Shown in pieces: positions 3,761 through 13,173 of a DNA stretch of 64,000 nucleotides. Position 1 is the stretch's first letter; the number at the start of each line of letters is the position of its first letter. The DNA is from a virus. Where the stretch lies: the UHGV virus genome UHGV-0214148. One strand, 5' to 3'. Below the pieces are notes generated by a model, which did not search any database, had not been told where the DNA came from, and saw only the letters and a program-made list of their open reading frames with translations. Both the position numbers and the translations under genes were made by a program.

Positions 3761-3796
3761 TAAAAACCGTAGGATGGACTAAGTCCATCCTACGGT
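3750..3796 (-). terminator. intrinsic terminator after tailspike gene
   Basis: Hairpin CCGTAGGATGGACT-AA-GTCCATCCTACGG followed by T-run on minus strand. Confidence 0.7.
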
Positions 3797-3801
3797 TTAA
3801 A

Positions 3802-5922
3802 TTAAATAACTACCCAGCTTTTGCCATCGGAACCAATCTGCATTAGCGTAATACTTTCATTGGTCTCAATGGGTTTGGCAAGACCTTCCGTCCCACTCTT
3901 TGGAGTGATGAGAACGTTTGAGTTTTCCGGTTTAACGATGATCTTACCAGCCTTATTTGCCACGATCTGTATATTTCTACCCACACTATATTCTAGATCA
4001 GGAATAGTAAGTTGGCCGCCACGGTTGGTGGCTGGGAAATACACATAAGACGACACATCTTCCTCAGATAACACTATACCACCAGAATCACGATTGACCG
4101 AGATCTCAAACTTAGAAATATCGATATCGTAGGCAGTAACTTTCGTAATATCTGTCAGAACCAATTCGTTCAAATCGGTATTAGCTGGACTGTTCGCCAG
4201 ATCAAACGGAGTGCCATTCTTGCCGTCAAGCACAGGTGTGACTTTGATTTTATTGTCACCCGGATAAATGATTTCAAGCGTATGCCAGTTATTATCGTAT
4301 GCACCAAAAGTTCCTAATTGCGCATTCTGCTTTTTATGATGCATCAGATAAAGATTCGTAGCGTCGGTCTGTAAGAAAAAAGACATTAGGTACGGGTTCG
4401 TCTTAGCCACACCAGCGTCAGCAAGTGTAGTACCAGAAGGTAGGTCGGACGCGGAAATACGCCAATAAAGTCCTAATCCGAAACGATCTGCTGCTAAATC
4501 ACCTTTTAGTCTAAAAGTAACGGTCAGACGTCCACCGTAACGTATCATGTCCGCAGCAGTCGCCATTGACTTAGTTACATTCCAAGGTTTCATCGTTACA
4601 GCCTTTCTTAATTCGACGAAATGCCCGTTTCCATCCTCAGTTTTTTGCACGGTTACGTTACAATCAACGATATTGTTCCAACCTTGCCCTTTCAGGGAAC
4701 CATCTCCACGACGACCGTTATAACCAACAGACTCTACTAATGGGGTATAGCTTCTTACCACATTCATATTGTCTTTGGAGCTCTTAGTGTCGTTCTTCGT
4801 CAGGAACATTGCACCAATCGCTGTTCTTGATAATATCTCGGCAGCTATTCTCTCTGAGATAATACCGCGTCGTGCCCAAGAACTGAAATGACTATTCCTT
4901 TCTGCAGACGTCCAGTTATCAGAACTACGGGAGGCAGCACCGTAATAGGCAGCACCAGTGATATTAGGATCGTCAGTGGGATCATTAGTCGGAACATGTT
5001 GGCCATTATCGTCGTACATGAATGGAACAAAAAAGATATTTTTTTGTTCGTTGTTACGATAATTACCGTATATGGTTTCATATTGAGCAGGATATTTTTC
5101 CTTCCAATAATAGGTAGTGTCCCCACAGATCCATGGTACTTCGGCGGTGGCGTACTCGGGCATCTGAGAGAGATGGTCAGAGAGATCAGTTCGGAAACGC
5201 TCTACCATTGCGTTAAATAACGCTGGTTGTTGTGCGTATTGTACTTTAGTCAGATCATACTCTCCCTGCATCCACACTACAGCCAAGAGTTTATTTTTAG
5301 GATTAACTTCCAGGGCTTTTTTGGTCCGGCTAACTAAATCTTTATAAAGCGGTTTGTCCACCCCCCATACCGATGACGCCGCAGAGGCTCCTGTGGCTTC
5401 ATCGAAGGTACCTTCTGCACCACCCGTGAAAGCAGAACCGCCGCGTGCGCAGGGTACTAGTAAGATACCGGCGTTCTTAGGAATATACGGGAGAAGACGC
5501 TTCGCGATATGAAGACCTTGACCCACACATCCGTATTCACCTTTGTCTAAATTGGCATTGGGATGCGAGTATTTGGACATATCTTGCACGTCGTGCAGAC
5601 AGTGATCCGCTGGAATGACGTCGTTATATTTACAATCAGCCCCATTAGGCGTTACCTTCGCACGGCGCGCCATCTGTTTAATTCGCGGATCGGGAGCGTC
5701 CAACGTCGCCGGTAGAGGCAACCCTTCACCATAACTCATCGCATTAGATTGCCCGGCTATAGGAATCACGAAGTAATACTCCGGCTCCGTCGTGCCCTGA
5801 AGTTTTGCAATATCAATTTTATATTCTTTTTCTTCCTTAGAAAGAAGAACTAACGCACCTTTGAGATCGCCAGAGAAATTGTCGAGTTCATGGATACGTT
5901 TCTTTCCAATTGGCTGACTCAT
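3802..5922 (-). CDS. tailspike / tail fibre protein with carbohydrate esterase (SGNH/SASA-like, GQSN motif) domain
   Basis: N-terminal about 35 aa is similar to the N-terminus of the 1479-aa fibre (shared anchor domain). Motif IPIAGQSNAMSYGEG resembles the catalytic GQSNM block of sialate-O-acetylesterase-type SGNH hydrolases found in esterase tailspikes. Confidence 0.6.
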   Translation of the reverse strand: MSQPIGKKRIHELDNFSGDLKGALVLLSKEEKEYKIDIAKLQGTTEPEYYFVIPIAGQSNAMSYGEGLPLPATLDAPDPRIKQMARRAKVTPNGADCKYNDVIPADHCLHDVQDMSKYSHPNANLDKGEYGCVGQGLHIAKRLLPYIPKNAGILLVPCARGGSAFTGGAEGTFDEATGASAASSVWGVDKPLYKDLVSRTKKALEVNPKNKLLAVVWMQGEYDLTKVQYAQQPALFNAMVERFRTDLSDHLSQMPEYATAEVPWICGDTTYYWKEKYPAQYETIYGNYRNNEQKNIFFVPFMYDDNGQHVPTNDPTDDPNITGAAYYGAASRSSDNWTSAERNSHFSSWARRGIISERIAAEILSRTAIGAMFLTKNDTKSSKDNMNVVRSYTPLVESVGYNGRRGDGSLKGQGWNNIVDCNVTVQKTEDGNGHFVELRKAVTMKPWNVTKSMATAADMIRYGGRLTVTFRLKGDLAADRFGLGLYWRISASDLPSGTTLADAGVAKTNPYLMSFFLQTDATNLYLMHHKKQNAQLGTFGAYDNNWHTLEIIYPGDNKIKVTPVLDGKNGTPFDLANSPANTDLNELVLTDITKVTAYDIDISKFEISVNRDSGGIVLSEEDVSSYVYFPATNRGGQLTIPDLEYSVGRNIQIVANKAGKIIVKPENSNVLITPKSGTEGLAKPIETNESITLMQIGSDGKSWVVI

Positions 5923-5925
5923 CTA

Positions 5926-6438
5926 CTACTCTCCAAAAGTTAAGATTTTATTGTCAAACGTCAACACGACAGAATCATCACCGATGCCACACGGTGTTTC
6001 ATCTGGGCCGAAAACCACCACGGAGAACTGTCCTTTATAAGCGATGGAATTTGGAGCGATGCTAAGCGTTACCGCGTCTTTACCTACCGTGAACGACTGG
6101 TCGGTTAAATCGTCGGTTTGTAAGTTAGCACCACAAACGGCATTGACGGATTCGATAAGATCGTGTGCATTAAACCCTTCACCTATTACTTTTACCAGAA
6201 TAGGTTGTTGGTTTAACCACCGCTCTGCGGTTAAACGGTTGTAGTAGATTTGCAACGTTCTGTTTCCAGGACGTTTAATCTTTACAATGGCAGTGGAGTC
6301 ACGATCCATTTCATCACTGGTTTTTACGTCACTGACTTCAACCTCGTTCTCTTGCAAGTCAAGTTGGAGGTCATGGTTAACCAGTGAAATAACCATGTTA
6401 AGTGAAGTTAGTGATAAATCTGGTGTGAATTTTTCCAC
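5926..6438 (-). CDS. tail-fibre-associated protein, paralog of 12527..13087 (GTG start)
   Basis: GTG start with AGGAGG RBS; clear similarity to 12527..13087 (PDLSL...LVNHD..., YY.RL.A...L...PIL, N..D....VN..CG.NLQ..DL); sits immediately upstream of a fibre gene. Confidence 0.7.
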   Translation of the reverse strand: MEKFTPDLSLTSLNMVISLVNHDLQLDLQENEVEVSDVKTSDEMDRDSTAIVKIKRPGNRTLQIYYNRLTAERWLNQQPILVKVIGEGFNAHDLIESVNAVCGANLQTDDLTDQSFTVGKDAVTLSIAPNSIAYKGQFSVVVFGPDETPCGIGDDSVVLTFDNKILTFGE

Positions 6439-6492
6439 GTATGTTTACCTCCTAAGGTTGGGGGTCATAAAATATTGACTAAAAAACATTCA

Positions 6493-6535: not shown

Positions 6536-6979
6536 TTAGCTAATTCTCAAATCACGCAGTGCGCCTGTCGATTTCATCGCGTTTTGGAACGCGCCACTGA
6601 TGTTATTAGTCCAGTAATAATGCTGTCCGTTAATAACCTGCTGATAGGTCAGTGCGCAGGTGTTACCACCTAAATTTACGGTAATGTTAGAGGCTCTGCC
6701 TCCTTGTAAGTAAACCGCTAAAGTAGGCTTTGCGTTGGCAACTATCGTCGTTAACTGTAACTCAATACCTACTAAAGTTCCCACCCCGCAGTTACCCGCG
6801 TTTTGAATGGTTCCCTGATTTTTCTGGTTTAACGGCCAGCTTGGTCCTACCGCGCCCCATTTCTTACCTAAAGAATCGCTATATGCAGCGGTTGCAATTT
6901 TACAGCCCATAGATCTTCCCACCATTTGACTCATCATAAAAGGTCTACCCAATCCTAATTTACTACCAGCAGCGCTCAT
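6536..6979 (-). CDS. gp38-like tail-fibre adhesin paralog; annotated from internal ATG, true start probably ATG at 7044 disrupted by G10 tract
   Basis: Paralog of 7298..7843. Upstream ATG (7044..7042) with AGGAG RBS is followed by G10 then TAA; one extra G restores a 22-aa extension MGGGVTGSWVGSSAKNETGEQW that matches the N-terminus of the paralog. Confidence 0.6.
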   Translation of the reverse strand: MSAAGSKLGLGRPFMMSQMVGRSMGCKIATAAYSDSLGKKWGAVGPSWPLNQKNQGTIQNAGNCGVGTLVGIELQLTTIVANAKPTLAVYLQGGRASNITVNLGGNTCALTYQQVINGQHYYWTNNISGAFQNAMKSTGALRDLRIS

Positions 6980-7032
6980 CCATTGTTCGCCCGTTTCGTT
7001 CTTAGCCGAAGAACCGACCCACGAACCGGTTA

Positions 7033-7042
7033 CCCCCCCCCC
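7033..7042. repeat. homopolymeric C10 tract (G10 on coding strand) immediately after an ATG with AGGAG RBS; frameshifts the adhesin paralog N-terminus
   Basis: Read directly; minus strand AGGAGatcgcgATG-G9-TAA. Confidence 0.95.
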
Positions 7043-7056
7043 ATCGCGATCTCCTG

Positions 7057-7287
7057 TTAAGATTTTCTACATGTTATTGAATCGAAAGCACCACGCCCAA
7101 CCCAACGCCAATTATAATGATGATCAGCTTTATAAAGTGTGTATCTGCCCTGCTTTTTTACGTCGAAAATATTGATCGTAGTCTCTTCATTACCCAGCTT
7201 AGCTGTGCCGTAACATACAGGTTCGGGTAGTTGTTGACATCCACTTACTGTAAGCAATGCGAAACCCAGTAAAACTTTTCTTAACAT
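7057..7287 (-). CDS. small lipoprotein (76 aa; signal peptide with lipobox LTVSGC)
   Basis: N-terminal MLRKVLLGFALLTVSGC is a typical signal peptidase II substrate; located between the two adhesin paralogs. Confidence 0.65.
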   Translation of the reverse strand: MLRKVLLGFALLTVSGCQQLPEPVCYGTAKLGNEETTINIFDVKKQGRYTLYKADHHYNWRWVGRGAFDSITCRKS

Positions 7288-7297
7288 CTTTCTGTCC

Positions 7298-7843
7298 TTA
7301 GACTACACTTATTGAAATTGTTGCACCGTTCTGATTAAATAACCAGTTGGTTGCCGTCTTAGCCTCATAGCGCCGGACGCCGTTACTGTAAGAGTACGGT
7401 AGAAAAGTAATCTTCGTTCCGTTAAACGAAAGCGTAATATTCTGATTTGGTCCATTAGTTAGGGCCATGTAGATAATACCAGTATTTTGTACTTGGCTAA
7501 GATGTGTGACGCTACAACCCAAGATCGAACCTGACACCGAACCGGCCGCATTTTGTGTTTGCACACGATTCGATACTGTAGAACCAGCACCCGTTGTTGT
7601 AGAGTTGTTCGAATACCCCCCATACGTATTTGTAATAGGAACCCACTGCGTGTTCGTAGCCTGCACCAAAACAACATAGGTTGATCGGCCTACAACGAGT
7701 TTAAGATCCTCTACGCTACGCCCGACCATCTGCGACATGTTAAATGGTGTGCTCAGTTTAAGCTTATTACCTGCCACACTCATCCACTCCTGACCGGTTA
7801 CTGCCTTTGCTGAGCTTCCAACCCAGCCGGATGCTACCCCCAT
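7298..7843 (-). CDS. gp38-like tail-fibre tip adhesin (181 aa)
   Basis: N-terminus MGVASGWVGSSAKAVTGQEWMSVAG...MSQMVGRS resembles, from memory, the conserved fibre-attachment N-terminus of T2-type gp38 adhesins; directly downstream of the long fibre gene, as in T-even 37-38 order. Confidence 0.55.
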   Translation of the reverse strand: MGVASGWVGSSAKAVTGQEWMSVAGNKLKLSTPFNMSQMVGRSVEDLKLVVGRSTYVVLVQATNTQWVPITNTYGGYSNNSTTTGAGSTVSNRVQTQNAAGSVSGSILGCSVTHLSQVQNTGIIYMALTNGPNQNITLSFNGTKITFLPYSYSNGVRRYEAKTATNWLFNQNGATISISVV

Positions 7844-7884
7844 AAATCCTCCAAACTAAAATAGGGGGATTACTCCCCCTATCT

Positions 7885-10800
7885 TTAATTCCCCTTGAGT
7901 TCTTTAAGCTCTTGGCGAAGAGTTTTCATGCCTTCTACTAACAACGCAATAACACCATTGTAATTTAGACGTAAACGTTTTTCGCCTGAAATGGCATCAT
8001 CATCCTCAGACACAAGCTCAGGTAACGCTTCTAGAGCGTCCTGAGCAATTAGACCTACAGAAGTCTGCCAGCCGTCGTCAGGATGCTGAATTTCGTACAA
8101 ATAACCGGTTAGTAACTCTAACCGATCCAAAGCCTTATCCAGCTTCACCAGATTACGTTTGTTACGACGGTCAGAACGAATCTGTACGTCGTTAAACGAA
8201 CCGTTACCGTTGCCAGTAACGTTATGTCCAAAGTTTACTTGGCCGTTAGAATTATTAAAAGACAACGGGCGTAATCCGTTCCAGGAACCCGCTGCGGCTT
8301 GTCCGGCGTCGGTTACTAAGAAATAGGTATTGGCACCGTCGTTACGTAAAATAAAACCGTAGGTACCGTAAGCGATTCGAAAATCAGGGTATTTAGTGGC
8401 CAATTTACCATTAACGGTTAAATCACCGCCTACAGTACCGCCCCCTGACGGTAACGCGCCCACTTCCGCAGCAGTTGGCTTGTTTCTCGTATTGTAAGCA
8501 CGACGCCAGCCTGGTGAGTATCCATCGCCGTTAAATACGTAGATAAACTCCGCATTAGTGAGTGCTCCGCCGACGCTCGTCGTTGTGGCGGTCGTTATAC
8601 GGATCGTGTAGTTGTTTGTGCTGTTGCCGTTACTAATGACTTCTATAACGGCCCCAGCTAACGGAATGACACCACAACCCGTCTCGCTGTGAGGTATGGA
8701 CGCACTGGCGGCATAAGCCCACGCACAGCGAGCAACCCACGATCTTGTGGTAAATGCGCCGTTATTTTTCAATAACGTCACTAGCTGTGCTGTAGTTATT
8801 GCACCGCCATTAGCGCCAGTTTCTAACCAACCACTAGGTGATGCCGGACAACCTATTTCGGCTGGCCCTAACGATATATTTCTAGTGCCATCAAACGCAA
8901 TACCATTGATGGTTCTTGCGGTTTGCAACTTTGTTGCCGTGGCTGCGTTTCCGGTGGTCGACTGATTCCCTGTTTGGTTTACTCCAGGTAAGTTGATGTC
9001 TTTAGTACCATCAAAAGCTACGCCACCTATATTTCGCGCAGTCTGGAGCTTAGTCGCAGTCGCAGCATTCCCCGTCGTCGATTGGTTACCGGTTTGGTTC
9101 ACACCGGGCAGACTAATGTCTTGCGAACCATCAAAGTTAATACCACCGATCTTACGTGGCGTTTGTAACTTAGTAGCGGTCGCTGCATTACCTGTCGTAT
9201 TCTGGTTACCTTGCTGGTTAACCCCCGGTAAATTGATATCCCCAGTACCGTCAAAGGTAACGCCCCCGATTCTGCGAGCAGTTTTCAGTTTCGTCGCGGT
9301 AGCAGCGTTACCAGTAGTATCTTGATTACCGGTGGTATTTACACCAGGAATACTATCACGGGCAGTATAAACTTGTGCCCAATCTGACCACGGCGCATCC
9401 GCTGTATCGCGTCGACTACGAATATAAACGGGTGCGTGCGCACCACTCGTGCCCGACCAACCGATTAACAGTTCACCTTCACCTAGCGCAGTAGAACCGC
9501 CCAAATGCAGCAAGTTACCATAAGCGGTCGGATAACCGTTATTGTAAACTTCGTACATCTGAATACCGGGTGTACCTTTGTTTGAACCGGTTAGTGCAGT
9601 AACCCGACCACGACCTACCAGGGTGTTGATATTGATGTCAGCAGAACCATCGAATCTCACACCGTTAATATTTCTGGCAGTTTGAAGTTTAGTGGCTGTC
9701 CCGGCATTACCCGTGGTGTTTTGATTACCCTGTTGGTTAACACCTGGGAGGTTAATATCAGCACTACCGTCGAAAGCGACTCCACCAATTCTACGTGCCG
9801 TCTTTAATTTCGTTGCGGTTGAAGCATTGCCTGTTAACTCGCCTGCTAACCCTTTTGCAAAGGTCTGTTTTTCTGCCCAGGTGTGTGCTGCATTCAATAC
9901 AGGCATCTGTCGTGGTGTAATCGTACGACTACCTTTCTCACCAGCGATACGTACTGCAAAGAATCGATAGTTGGCAGTAGACACCGTACTACGCCAAACC
10001 AACATACTCCGGCCTGATGTAGCGCCATCTGATGGACCAACCAGAATGCTAACTAAGTTACCGTCAATAACACCCCAATCCATTCCCGTAGGAATGTTTT
10101 TCATGGTGTTAAGCGGCGTACAGATTAACTCACCCGGTTTAAAGTCATAGGTTTGCCAGTCTAAAGGATCAACATTCGCACGTTCACCGCCGATACCTAA
10201 TACCAGCGGAAGCGAATACGATGTGAAAACCTCACGCCAATCGCTCCAAGCGTTACCCGTACGGATACGTTGGAATTTACGACCTTTAGTTTCTGTACCC
10301 GTACCGTATGTAGTATAATTCTGTTCGACCCCTGTACCGTCTAAGCGTAAGGTAACTTCACAAACGCCTAATATGGTTTCACCAGAAGAACCGGTAAGTG
10401 GACCGTTAGTTGCTTCACCAGTGACACTGAAACGTCCCGGTTTAACGAGATCGTTAAAATTGGCTTTAAAGAAAGCACCGTCAGTCTGATAACCAACCTG
10501 AATCCAATCTTCCCATTGCGGGTTTGATGAATCCCACGTTGCGGTCAAACCACGAACATACATCGTACCACGACGTGTGGTGTATCGCTGCAACCGTCCG
10601 AAAAGACCACCTTCCATTACTTCTAGTACGCCTTGCGCACCGCCACCTTCTTCAGGGTAATGTCTGCTAAAAACAGCCAGCGAACTGCTTGAGTTTCGCC
10701 AGTTACCCATATGCTCAGCGCCACCCAAACTGTTCAAGTCTATAGCGGTAGATAATGGACGTACACCAGTAGTTACCATTCTCCACGGCGACCAGGGTCC

Positions 10801-12324
10801 ATTGGCACCATTCCACTCGCCACTCAGCATACGGTTGTACACGTTACCATTACGACAGGTAAAACGCTGTGCACCACTGTAATTACCGGCTTTATACACT
10901 TCCAGATAACCGACTGCACCGTCTTCTGGGAAATGTTTTGCCATCGACGCATTGGTTGACGTCGACTTAGCCCACGTTCCTGTGTAATTGGCATCAGGAG
11001 CAAATGTGTTAATATCAGCATCTACAGGCATTTCGCCACGGAAACGTAGATAGGTGTCAGGAGACAGACCGATATTGCGAGCAAACGTTTCTTTATCTGG
11101 GATATCAGCGCCGTTAGAGTTTTTCTGTAACGCGCCATTCGCTTTATCTACAGTGGCTTTTAATCCCAAGAAATTGATGATATCCGCAGTTGACCCTTTC
11201 GCTAACAAGGATCTGGCCGTTTCTGTAAAATCCGTTAATCCGACTTTATTACTGCCAGTGAAATACATGAGTTTATTTGCCGCTGTGGTGACTGCGGCAA
11301 TGGCGGTGAGCAACGGACTGAGAGGTTGTTTCTGCGCAAGTTCCCCAGTAATCGTTGTTGCGAAGTTAGGGTCATTACCTAACGCCTCAGCTAATTCCGC
11401 TAAGGTATTTAACGTCTCGGGTGAAGAACCAACCAGTTCCGCAATCGCGTCACGCACCCAGGCCGTTGTGGAGATGCTCGTGTCGTTCGAGTCCTTCGGG
11501 GGTGTTGGGGATGACGGTTTACCCGTAAAATTCGGCGAATGTTTATTGGCTTTTAACTGTAATTCGTCATTCAGCTGTTTAACCGTGGACGGTGTGGCGG
11601 CCTCAGTCACGGATTCGCTAGTCAGTGTATCGTTAAGTTTAACGATACCTTTACCGGTCGTACTAGCGTCGATTAAGCCCTGCGCAGCGATTTTCTCCGC
11701 ACGTAAGGCAGCTGACTCCGAGCGTGTTGCTGCGCCTTCTGAACTTTCTTTATCTTTCGCGACCTGTGCAGCAATCTTCTCCACTGCGCCCTTACTGGCC
11801 TCAACTGAAGCCGCAGTATTCTCGACACCGGTAGCCGTCTGTTGGACTTGTCCGGCCTGTTGCGTAACCGTTTCTGCTTTCTTAGTTACATCAGCCGCTG
11901 CAGCCGTCACCGATTGTTCGCTTGTAGCGACAGCTTGAGCTTTCTCATTTACCGACTGTAATACAGTATCTACGGCAGTTTTCGCGGCTAAAACTTCAGC
12001 GTGTTTTTTGTTAACCTCAGCAGTTTTAGTGGCAACGGTTCCCGCTTGCTCGCTAACGGTGGAAGCTAACGTGTCAGTTTGTTGCTTCGCGGTTTCTGCT
12101 AAGTCTTTTGCTTGTGTGGCTTCTGTTGCAGACTGTTGTGATTTGGCCGCAGCCGTTTGTGCGTCAGCAACCGCGTTTCTGACGGTGTCAATATCCGCAA
12201 CAATCTCGCGGACAGGTAACTGATAATCCCTTTCGTCTTTCGAAAAAAGTAAAACGCCTTCACCGATATCCCCGGTGTATGGACGTAAATCGTGTAAACG
12301 AATTTTCTTTACCGCTTTAGCCAT
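7885..12324 (-). CDS. long tail fibre protein (1479 aa) with tandem fibre repeats and C-terminal intramolecular chaperone (peptidase S74-like) domain
   Basis: About 6 tandem repeats of the type TATKLQTAR-IGGV-FDG--DI-LPGVNQ-GNQ-TTGNAA; C-terminal ...SDRRNKRNLVKLDKALDRLELLTGYLYE... resembles the auto-cleaving chaperone domain of T5 pb1 and endosialidases; N-terminal coiled-coil and anchor region. Confidence 0.8.
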   Translation of the reverse strand: MAKAVKKIRLHDLRPYTGDIGEGVLLFSKDERDYQLPVREIVADIDTVRNAVADAQTAAAKSQQSATEATQAKDLAETAKQQTDTLASTVSEQAGTVATKTAEVNKKHAEVLAAKTAVDTVLQSVNEKAQAVATSEQSVTAAAADVTKKAETVTQQAGQVQQTATGVENTAASVEASKGAVEKIAAQVAKDKESSEGAATRSESAALRAEKIAAQGLIDASTTGKGIVKLNDTLTSESVTEAATPSTVKQLNDELQLKANKHSPNFTGKPSSPTPPKDSNDTSISTTAWVRDAIAELVGSSPETLNTLAELAEALGNDPNFATTITGELAQKQPLSPLLTAIAAVTTAANKLMYFTGSNKVGLTDFTETARSLLAKGSTADIINFLGLKATVDKANGALQKNSNGADIPDKETFARNIGLSPDTYLRFRGEMPVDADINTFAPDANYTGTWAKSTSTNASMAKHFPEDGAVGYLEVYKAGNYSGAQRFTCRNGNVYNRMLSGEWNGANGPWSPWRMVTTGVRPLSTAIDLNSLGGAEHMGNWRNSSSSLAVFSRHYPEEGGGAQGVLEVMEGGLFGRLQRYTTRRGTMYVRGLTATWDSSNPQWEDWIQVGYQTDGAFFKANFNDLVKPGRFSVTGEATNGPLTGSSGETILGVCEVTLRLDGTGVEQNYTTYGTGTETKGRKFQRIRTGNAWSDWREVFTSYSLPLVLGIGGERANVDPLDWQTYDFKPGELICTPLNTMKNIPTGMDWGVIDGNLVSILVGPSDGATSGRSMLVWRSTVSTANYRFFAVRIAGEKGSRTITPRQMPVLNAAHTWAEKQTFAKGLAGELTGNASTATKLKTARRIGGVAFDGSADINLPGVNQQGNQNTTGNAGTATKLQTARNINGVRFDGSADININTLVGRGRVTALTGSNKGTPGIQMYEVYNNGYPTAYGNLLHLGGSTALGEGELLIGWSGTSGAHAPVYIRSRRDTADAPWSDWAQVYTARDSIPGVNTTGNQDTTGNAATATKLKTARRIGGVTFDGTGDINLPGVNQQGNQNTTGNAATATKLQTPRKIGGINFDGSQDISLPGVNQTGNQSTTGNAATATKLQTARNIGGVAFDGTKDINLPGVNQTGNQSTTGNAATATKLQTARTINGIAFDGTRNISLGPAEIGCPASPSGWLETGANGGAITTAQLVTLLKNNGAFTTRSWVARCAWAYAASASIPHSETGCGVIPLAGAVIEVISNGNSTNNYTIRITTATTTSVGGALTNAEFIYVFNGDGYSPGWRRAYNTRNKPTAAEVGALPSGGGTVGGDLTVNGKLATKYPDFRIAYGTYGFILRNDGANTYFLVTDAGQAAAGSWNGLRPLSFNNSNGQVNFGHNVTGNGNGSFNDVQIRSDRRNKRNLVKLDKALDRLELLTGYLYEIQHPDDGWQTSVGLIAQDALEALPELVSEDDDAISGEKRLRLNYNGVIALLVEGMKTLRQELKELKGN
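8780..9850 (-). repeat. in-frame tandem coding repeats (~35 aa units) within the long tail fibre gene
   Basis: Repeated peptide motif visible in translation; also generates spurious antisense ORFs 8747..8965 and 8993..9325. Confidence 0.7.
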
Positions 12325-12526: not shown

Positions 12527-13087
12527 TCATGTAGCCGGGTTTTCTTCAGCTGTGTCGTCATCTGGAACCTCAAAGGTAAGAACGGCATCATCACCAATAC
12601 AGAAGATCGCATCATCTTCGTTTGCTAATGCTCGTTCGGTTGTATCGAATAACGTTACCATAAACGCATTCATCCACGCAGGAGAATCGTCAGCAACGTT
12701 AACAGCAATGGGTTCGTTACCTAAGGTGATATCTGCAGCACGTAAATCTTCGGGTTGTAAGTTCGTTCCGCAGAATTCATTTACAACACCTAAAATGTCA
12801 CGAAGGTTGTCTTCAGTACCGTCTAACGAAATCAAAATAGGTTCAGACGCTAACACTTCGTCCGCATCCAAACGGTCGTAATAAACAACCACAGAAGCAC
12901 CATCAGGTTTCCTGATTTTTGTAATCTCTGTCAGTGTGTTACGACGCGAAGTGGTCGGGGACGGGTTTGCCATAGTGTTGCTAATACGGATTTCGTTTAG
13001 AGACAACCGTGAACCGTTATCGTGGTTGATTAAAGCGACCACTAATTCGGCTGAGGCCAGACTTAAATCAGGTACGTAAGTAGTCAC
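12527..13087 (-). CDS. tail-fibre-associated protein, paralog of 5926..6438 (GTG start at 13087)
   Basis: ORF track start at 13153 would translate a terminator hairpin; GTG at 13087 with GGGAGG RBS gives an N-terminus (MTTYVPDLSL) that aligns with the paralog's MEKFTPDLSL. Confidence 0.7.
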   Translation of the reverse strand: MTTYVPDLSLASAELVVALINHDNGSRLSLNEIRISNTMANPSPTTSRRNTLTEITKIRKPDGASVVVYYDRLDADEVLASEPILISLDGTEDNLRDILGVVNEFCGTNLQPEDLRAADITLGNEPIAVNVADDSPAWMNAFMVTLFDTTERALANEDDAIFCIGDDAVLTFEVPDDDTAEENPAT

Positions 13088-13100
13088 TAAAACCTCCCAG

Positions 13101-13145
13101 ATCAAAAAAATAAAAACACCTACCGCCCATAGAATCGGGCGGTAG
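13101..13145 (-). terminator. intrinsic terminator (hairpin CTACCGCCC...GGGCGGTAG + T-run)
   Basis: Stem-loop plus TTTTTATTTTTTT on minus strand; mistranslated as N-terminus in ORF track. Confidence 0.6.
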
Positions 13146-13173
13146 ACAGTCATTTTACAGCTAAAAAATCAAA

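Follow-up and report, generated by a model that had tools for sequence, protein, structure and literature searches.

Among the systems closest to the one described here, the lipoprotein Llp of phage T5 is made within 5 min of infection, from a gene whose tight linkage to pb5 has been described. It carries an acylated Cys1 and an essential C11–C58 disulphide that joins its N- and C-termini, and the rearrangement of the surface loops of FhuA brought about by Llp has been shown structurally (PDB 8A60 with FhuA; 7QJF for free Llp); its principal role has been proposed to be that of keeping progeny from adsorbing to debris. The Cor proteins of phi80, HK022, N15, ES18 and T1 all come from FhuA-dependent phages, and Cor- or Llp-like proteins occur in the BtuB-dependent Tempevirinae as well (PMC13164509). 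Rtp45 of phage Rtp is likewise a small accessory protein encoded beside a receptor-binding protein gene and blocks its receptor from the periplasmic side, but its target is LptD, unlike that of the FhuA-type Cor proteins (PMC12685063).

We have analysed a 64,000-nucleotide stretch of the virus genome UHGV-0214148 (hereafter the window), in which an initial annotation had noted a small lipoprotein gene inside a tail-fibre operon, between two adhesin paralogs, and had proposed that its product masks the phage receptor.

The cor gene and its product

The 76-aa open reading frame claimed at 7057..7287 is present, and its strand, which had been left unstated, is minus. On the basis of the ORF and of homology it encodes the precursor of a Cor-family exclusion lipoprotein, and we therefore refer to it as cor. 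Its ATG (7287–7285) has a Shine–Dalgarno sequence, AAGGA, 7 nt ahead of it (7295..7299, minus strand, read directly from the sequence); this site overlaps the adhesin-1 stop codon. By sequence, the product of cor clearly belongs to the known Cor lipoproteins of phages, which inactivate an outer-membrane phage receptor of the host, classically FhuA, from the inside. It matches the NCBIfam equivalog NF047972, 'phage exclusion lipoprotein Cor', at 69 bits, where 31 is the cut-off (E=2.6e-19, positions 6–78 of the 78 of the profile), and PHROG_1119, 'Cor superinfection exclusion protein', with E=1.3e-25 (residues 6–75 against profile positions 6–76 of 78); no Pfam model matches the 76-aa product. 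The Cor protein itself is ordinary and a matter of routine annotation, being named by standard phage and NCBI models. The family is compact, with 14 representatives at E≤0.001 among 1.84 billion proteins, and a profile search returned 269 Cor clusters, named 'cor protein' or 'phage exclusion lipoprotein Cor' by their sources, from Escherichia, Enterobacter, Citrobacter, Klebsiella, Salmonella and relatives.

In tblastn comparisons the nearest Cor relatives were those of Stx2-converting phage 86 (Stx2-86), POCJ13 and phi296 (Sepvirinae; 61.5% identity) and of the phage-plasmid SSU5 (54%), all of them temperate phages of 57–103 kb, followed by those of N15 (44%) and of phi80, HK022 and mEp phages (40%), with about 27% for T1-like Cor. 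Like the Cor proteins of phi80, N15, HK022, mEp167, ES18 and T1, the protein falls under the curated family model, has a length (76 aa) within the family range of about 75–80 aa, a lipobox Cys, the conserved pair Cys25 and Cys73 and the NWRWV motif, and is encoded beside receptor-binding genes at the end of the tail module; it is, however, only 24–44% identical to them and belongs to a separate clade. All family-invariant residues are kept (Cys17, Pro23, Cys25, Gly32, Ile40, Trp62, Phe68 and Cys73), Trp60 and Trp62 being invariant or nearly so in the family, where the NWRWV of the window represents an NW(R/Q)W motif. In a neighbour-joining tree, the Cor proteins of the window, SSU5 and Stx2-86 form a clade whose sister group is the lambdoid FhuA clade; a T1-like FhuA Cor branches outside both. 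Identity between the window's clade and FhuA-validated lambdoid Cor proteins is only 35–42%, falling to 24% for a T1-like one, and the clade has features of its own, namely HHYNWRWVG instead of GYPFNWRWVS and a 3-residue deletion after the lipobox.

The signal peptide and lipobox occupy residues 1–17 (MLRK, VLLGFALLT and VSG-C; 7237..7287, minus strand, by the lipoprotein rule and a codon check), the codon of Cys17 lying at 7237–7239. The N-terminus reads MLRKVLLGFALLTVSGC and continues, from the Gln at mature position +2, with QQLPEPVCYG... It passes the lipoprotein rule (K or R within the first 7 residues, an uncharged h-region, V-S-G-C17 and Gln at +2), and Cys17 is invariant across 48 Cor homologues in the family alignments, so that the lipoprotein signal (LLTVSGC) reported earlier holds, although the pattern by itself is weak. 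Of the 147 ATG-initiated ORFs in the window with 50 aa or more, two satisfy the rule, including an antisense artefact, and the mean for shuffled sequence is 0.6 matches per window. A 63-aa antisense ORF at 6287–6478 (plus strand), within a DUF7941 gene, passes almost certainly by chance, from which it follows that a lipobox counts for little on its own; cor is certain as a gene because of its homology. Lol sorting follows an established rule for the residue at +2, and the lipobox together with the Gln at that position predicts that Cor would be sorted to the outer membrane.

Mature Cor has 60 aa (about 7.0 kDa) and cysteines at mature positions 1, 9 and 57, equivalent to those of the acylated Cys1 and of the disulphide of Llp. 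Structure prediction of the mature domain, which the initial annotation had put forward as a check, gave a compact folded all-beta domain and not a proline-rich extended peptide. This model agrees with the Llp fold, with a Foldseek match to Llp of only E=0.24. Sequence similarity to Llp, which the initial annotation had refrained from claiming, was not detected either, since a search of all PDB sequences (E≤10) with a profile built from 48 Cor proteins gave one spurious match only and Llp was not among the matches.

The fibre, adhesin and cor gene cluster

On the minus strand, common to all genes there, cor is preceded by a DUF7941 gene (12527–13153; domain search), the gene for a 1479-aa long tail fibre (7885..12324; Phage_fiber_2, Gp34_trimer and Peptidase_S74 domains) and adhesin 1, which encodes a 181-aa gp38-like tail-fibre adhesin (7298..7843; Gp38_N E=2.4e-20, PHROG_1121 E=6.9e-53). 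It is followed by adhesin 2, a second gp38-like adhesin gene that is out of frame in the window (6536..7044; frame analysis, Gp38_N and PHROG_1121), a second DUF7941 gene (5926–6438) and the gene for a 706-aa SASA-esterase fibre (3802–5922), the latter two identified by domain search. Only 10 nt separate adhesin 1 from cor and 12 nt cor from adhesin 2, whereas in ES18 and the T1-like phage JMPW2 cor lies on the strand opposite to the tail genes. In a consensus scan, the only strong terminator-like hairpins on the minus strand were found at 13148–13117 and 3798–3764. The second of these (3764..3798; 16 pairs followed by a T run, a pattern match only) probably ends the transcription unit of the fibre, adhesin and cor genes, and the position inside a tail-fibre operon that had been assigned to the lipoprotein gene is borne out by the hairpins, the short gaps and the shared strand. 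No sigma-70-like promoter was found upstream of cor on the minus strand; jumbo phages of this kind have polymerases of their own, whose promoters lie outside the scope of the scan. The gaps, the common strand and the lack of such a site indicate that cor would be co-transcribed with the structural genes, and early expression of the kind seen for T5 llp is not evident for cor, which lies within an operon of structural genes. The 41-nt gap between the long fibre and adhesin 1 contains a perfect G5/C5 hairpin (GGGGGAGTAATCCCCC; 7863–7880) without a good T run, which might act as an attenuator or in RNA processing, or have no role.

The description of cor as lying between two adhesin paralogs is correct insofar as the products of both neighbours have a Gp38_N docking domain and match PHROG_1121, but the receptor-binding C-termini are different alleles, and in BLASTP only 24 N-terminal residues of the two adhesins align (71% identity). 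[quoted passage not shown] A comparison of loci L004, L006, L098 and L100 with L007–L011 shows that its length is 1479 aa in some samples and 1439 aa in others, a difference of 40 residues that is probably due to the copy number of 'GNQxTTGNAxTATKLQTAR...' shaft repeat units. The second fibre (3802–5922) carries, besides the SASA esterase, DUF6645. The two fibres of the window have an N-terminus of about 40 residues in common with each other and with gp140 of Erwinia phage Asesino, and nothing else, and each is preceded by a DUF7941 gene, which suggests a duplicated slot for an adaptor plus an exchangeable fibre.

Adhesin 2 begins with a tract of 10 G (7033..7042, minus strand) that starts with the G of its ATG (7044–7042). 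In the window it reads M-G-G-G-stop, leaving a 147-aa internal ORF (6536–6979), and removal of 2 G restores a 168-aa adhesin; intact products of 168 or 169 aa are called in other assemblies of the same phage. Among 13 distinct metagenome assemblies, the tract had 8 G in two, 9 G in four, 10 G in six, as in the window, and 11 G in one, the gene being in frame only at 8 or 11 G. The flanks are near-identical between assemblies, with as few as 5 mismatches in 1.47 kb, and adhesin-2 relatives elsewhere start with MGVASGW and have no G tract. The tract has the appearance of a hypermutable switch that acts on a receptor-binding gene, which would make adhesin 2 a candidate phase-variable adhesin; another possibility is that the length differences are homopolymer assembly errors. 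Within adhesin 2, 135 bp (6887–7021) covering the conserved N-terminal docking part are 96% identical to phage-plasmid CMS-2020a. This is the only near-identical DNA match of the locus in the phage collection and could be a recombination footprint.

The adhesin partner of Cor

Adhesin 1 is 69% identical to gp22 of Stx2-86 and 50% identical to SSU5_022, with 46–67% in the C-terminal receptor-binding part. When 83 Cor loci were compared, the adhesin-1 allele was present upstream of cor in each of the 12 loci that have upstream sequence and a Cor sharing 54% identity or more with that of the window, and in none of the approximately 68 loci whose Cor is at most 44% identical. In place of that allele, the latter have the canonical phi80 gp22/gp23-like pair, and tblastn queries with phi80 gp22/gp23 and Stx2-86 gp27/gp28 matched 68–69 classical cor loci. 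With the same queries, no counterpart of the N15 gp22/gp23-like companions was found in the window's locus, the best matches in the window (E=0.002–0.05) being 30–40 kb away. These companions are a feature of the cassette and not of the Cor protein family. The relatives of adhesin 2 in Stx phage P13374 and in CMS-2020a (59–63% identity) are not followed by cor in either case. Because of the linkage in 12 of 12 close loci and the occurrence of adhesin-2 relatives without cor, adhesin 1 and Cor can be regarded as a co-inherited unit, and we infer that adhesin 1 is the cognate receptor-binding partner of Cor. The logic of tight linkage is the same as for T5 llp and pb5.

In Stx2-86 the order of fibre, adhesin and cor, the 12-nt gap and the upstream adhesin allele are all the same as in the window. 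SSU5 has two extra genes between adhesin and cor, where the window has none, and the window differs from SSU5 as well as from Stx2-86, POCJ13 and phi296 in having a second, poly-G-gated adhesin after cor. One gene between the adhesin and cor of SSU5, SSU5_024 (locus L001, 4112–4974), resembles gp28 of Stx2-86, the counterpart of a canonical companion gene, and gp27 and gp28 of Stx2-86 itself lie 3 kb downstream of cor (locus L002, 8432–9336). As judged from these gene matches, SSU5 is a case in which a gp38-like adhesin is combined with at least part of the extended cor cassette. The assignment of the partner is less clean in SSU5 and Stx2-86, because SSU5_024 and gp27/gp28 accompany cor there. 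A literature search yielded no receptor data for adhesins of the adhesin-1 type; SSU5 is said to be specific for the LPS core.

A jumbo phage as carrier

The rest of the window matches jumbo phages of approximately 240 kb, namely Erwinia phage Asesino (genus Erskinevirus) and SPN3US-like Salmonella phages, at about 75% identity on the nucleotide level, with no more than 26% of a 24-kb query aligned. Asesino has conserved backbone genes on both sides of the cassette but no counterpart of adhesin 1, cor or adhesin 2, and its fibre gene is matched by the long fibre over the first 38 aa only. Since the fibre body is a mosaic of coliphage modules and only about 40 N-terminal residues are Asesino-like, the host-recognition set has been transferred from temperate phages of enterobacteria to an N-terminal adaptor that is specific to the jumbo phage.

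The exact Cor protein was found in 158 blocks of a public assembly collection and is listed on 96 contigs, the longest of 225–227 kb; the carrier is hence a jumbo phage of about 225 kb, in contrast to the siphoviruses of 40–60 kb that are the classical carriers of Cor. Many of the contigs with identical Cor come from the metagenome assemblies VATA22-2 (VATA22-2_SAMN2628...), in addition to one other ENA assembly and Logan runs, and only four other Cor variants at 90% identity or more were found. The phage carrying this cor was not found in INPHARED, IMG/VR or the JGI metagenomes as searched. Proteins of the adhesin-2 cluster occur on contigs of about 225 kb from isolates whose assemblies NCBI labels as Shigella flexneri and Salmonella enterica, and these labels suggest an enterobacterial host. 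Cor-bearing phage records were all of 103 kb or less (among 60 of 83 and the best 60 of 156 matches), the best 80 of 405 IMG/VR Cor loci were on contigs of at most 87 kb, and no publication linking Cor to jumbo phages was found in a literature search. Among the collections inspected, the gene appears to be the first Cor-type exclusion gene in a jumbo phage.

Discussion

We consider it highly probable that cor encodes a Cor-type superinfection-exclusion lipoprotein with a receptor-masking pathway, and the receptor-masking role proposed in the initial annotation is supported, at the level of homology, by membership of the Cor family (NF047972, PHROG_1119). The precursor would be exported, cut by signal peptidase II and acylated at Cys17. 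The 60-residue all-beta domain, presumably held by a Cys9–Cys57 disulphide, would then bind the periplasmic face of the outer-membrane receptor of the phage and, by an allosteric mechanism, rearrange its surface loops such that the phage adhesin no longer binds. Adhesin 1, whose gp38-like gene ends 10 nt before cor, would be the cognate adhesin, and the two were acquired as one unit from temperate enterobacterial phages, along with the distal fibre modules. For a virulent jumbo phage, the benefit could lie in the exclusion of competitors that use the same receptor. Since cor lies in a structural-gene operon, one can also propose a second benefit, in that progeny would not be wasted on receptor-bearing debris and vesicles, and if cor is expressed late, keeping progeny off debris would be the main one. 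Blocking one receptor may be insufficient to exclude a phage with several fibres.

The receptor targeted by Cor is rather probably FhuA, which is the most economical choice because Cor proteins of FhuA phages lie on both sides of the window's clade in the tree. It is also possible, although we think it unlikely, that fold and periplasmic masking were retained while this Cor clade was retargeted to a non-FhuA receptor of adhesin 1, for example another TonB-dependent transporter such as BtuB. This clade stands apart and is invariably accompanied by a gp38-type adhesin and not by the gpJ-associated gp22/gp23-like genes of FhuA phages, and both the BtuB-dependent Tempevirinae with their Cor/Llp-like proteins and the unrelated exclusion protein Rtp45, which works likewise on LptD, provide precedents for other targets (PMC13164509, PMC12685063). 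In addition, known gp38 adhesins of T-even phages bind porins and not FhuA, and among 255 coliphages that were screened, FhuA was predicted as the receptor for siphoviruses only (10.64898/2026.04.02.716166). Against retargeting, the protein scores far above the cut-off of an equivalog-level Cor model, FhuA-specific members flank its clade on both sides, and no sequence-defined Cor member with a demonstrated non-FhuA target was found in a literature search.

That cor came along with the adhesin cassette as a mere passenger, with no role in a virulent jumbo phage because of ill-timed expression or a receptor mismatch, seems quite improbable to us. The cassette is clearly foreign to the backbone, no promoter of cor's own was detected and adhesin 2 next to it is in many cases out of frame, all of which would fit a passenger; yet cor has an intact reading frame and a good ribosome-binding site, every family-invariant residue is kept, the identical protein recurs on the 96 contigs from many samples with so few variants close to it, and T1 and T5, which are virulent as well, rely on the same device (PMC13164509; 10.64898/2026.03.26.714494). 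The outer-membrane subunit of a spanin, an Rz1-like lysis lipoprotein, would be the commonest kind of small phage lipoprotein and would agree with the small size and the lipobox. This reading is effectively refuted by the strong Cor homology, with no match to any spanin family, by the folded beta domain of the model, where an extended proline-rich peptide would be expected, and by the gene context, as no i-spanin, holin or endolysin adjoins cor and its neighbours are fibre and adhesin genes.

If cor is taken as an exclusion gene with adhesin 1 as its partner, a broader idea, which we put forward as doubtful, is that the two form a portable 'receptor key plus receptor lock' with which fibres of any tail type could use a TonB-dependent transporter such as FhuA, placed here beside a poly-G-switched adhesin 2 that would differ in specificity and has no such partner. 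If this were true, a contractile-tailed jumbo phage would be the carrier of a FhuA-type key/lock pair, and its virions would alternate between a Cor-protected and an unprotected receptor. That would amount to a bet-hedging host-range module of a type not described for enterobacterial jumbo phages.

What is new here is an unusual carrier and an unusual partner for the known Cor family, and the cassette is of more interest than the gene alone. The presence of Cor in a jumbo phage implies that this exclusion device is not limited to small siphoviruses and prophages, and a whole set of fibre, adhesin and exclusion genes is seen to move among temperate phages, phage-plasmids and a jumbo phage that is virulent. 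The strict linkage of adhesin 1 and Cor predicts that the receptor of this adhesin would be FhuA or a related transporter, a prediction that bears on the host range of a phage recurring in many metagenome samples.
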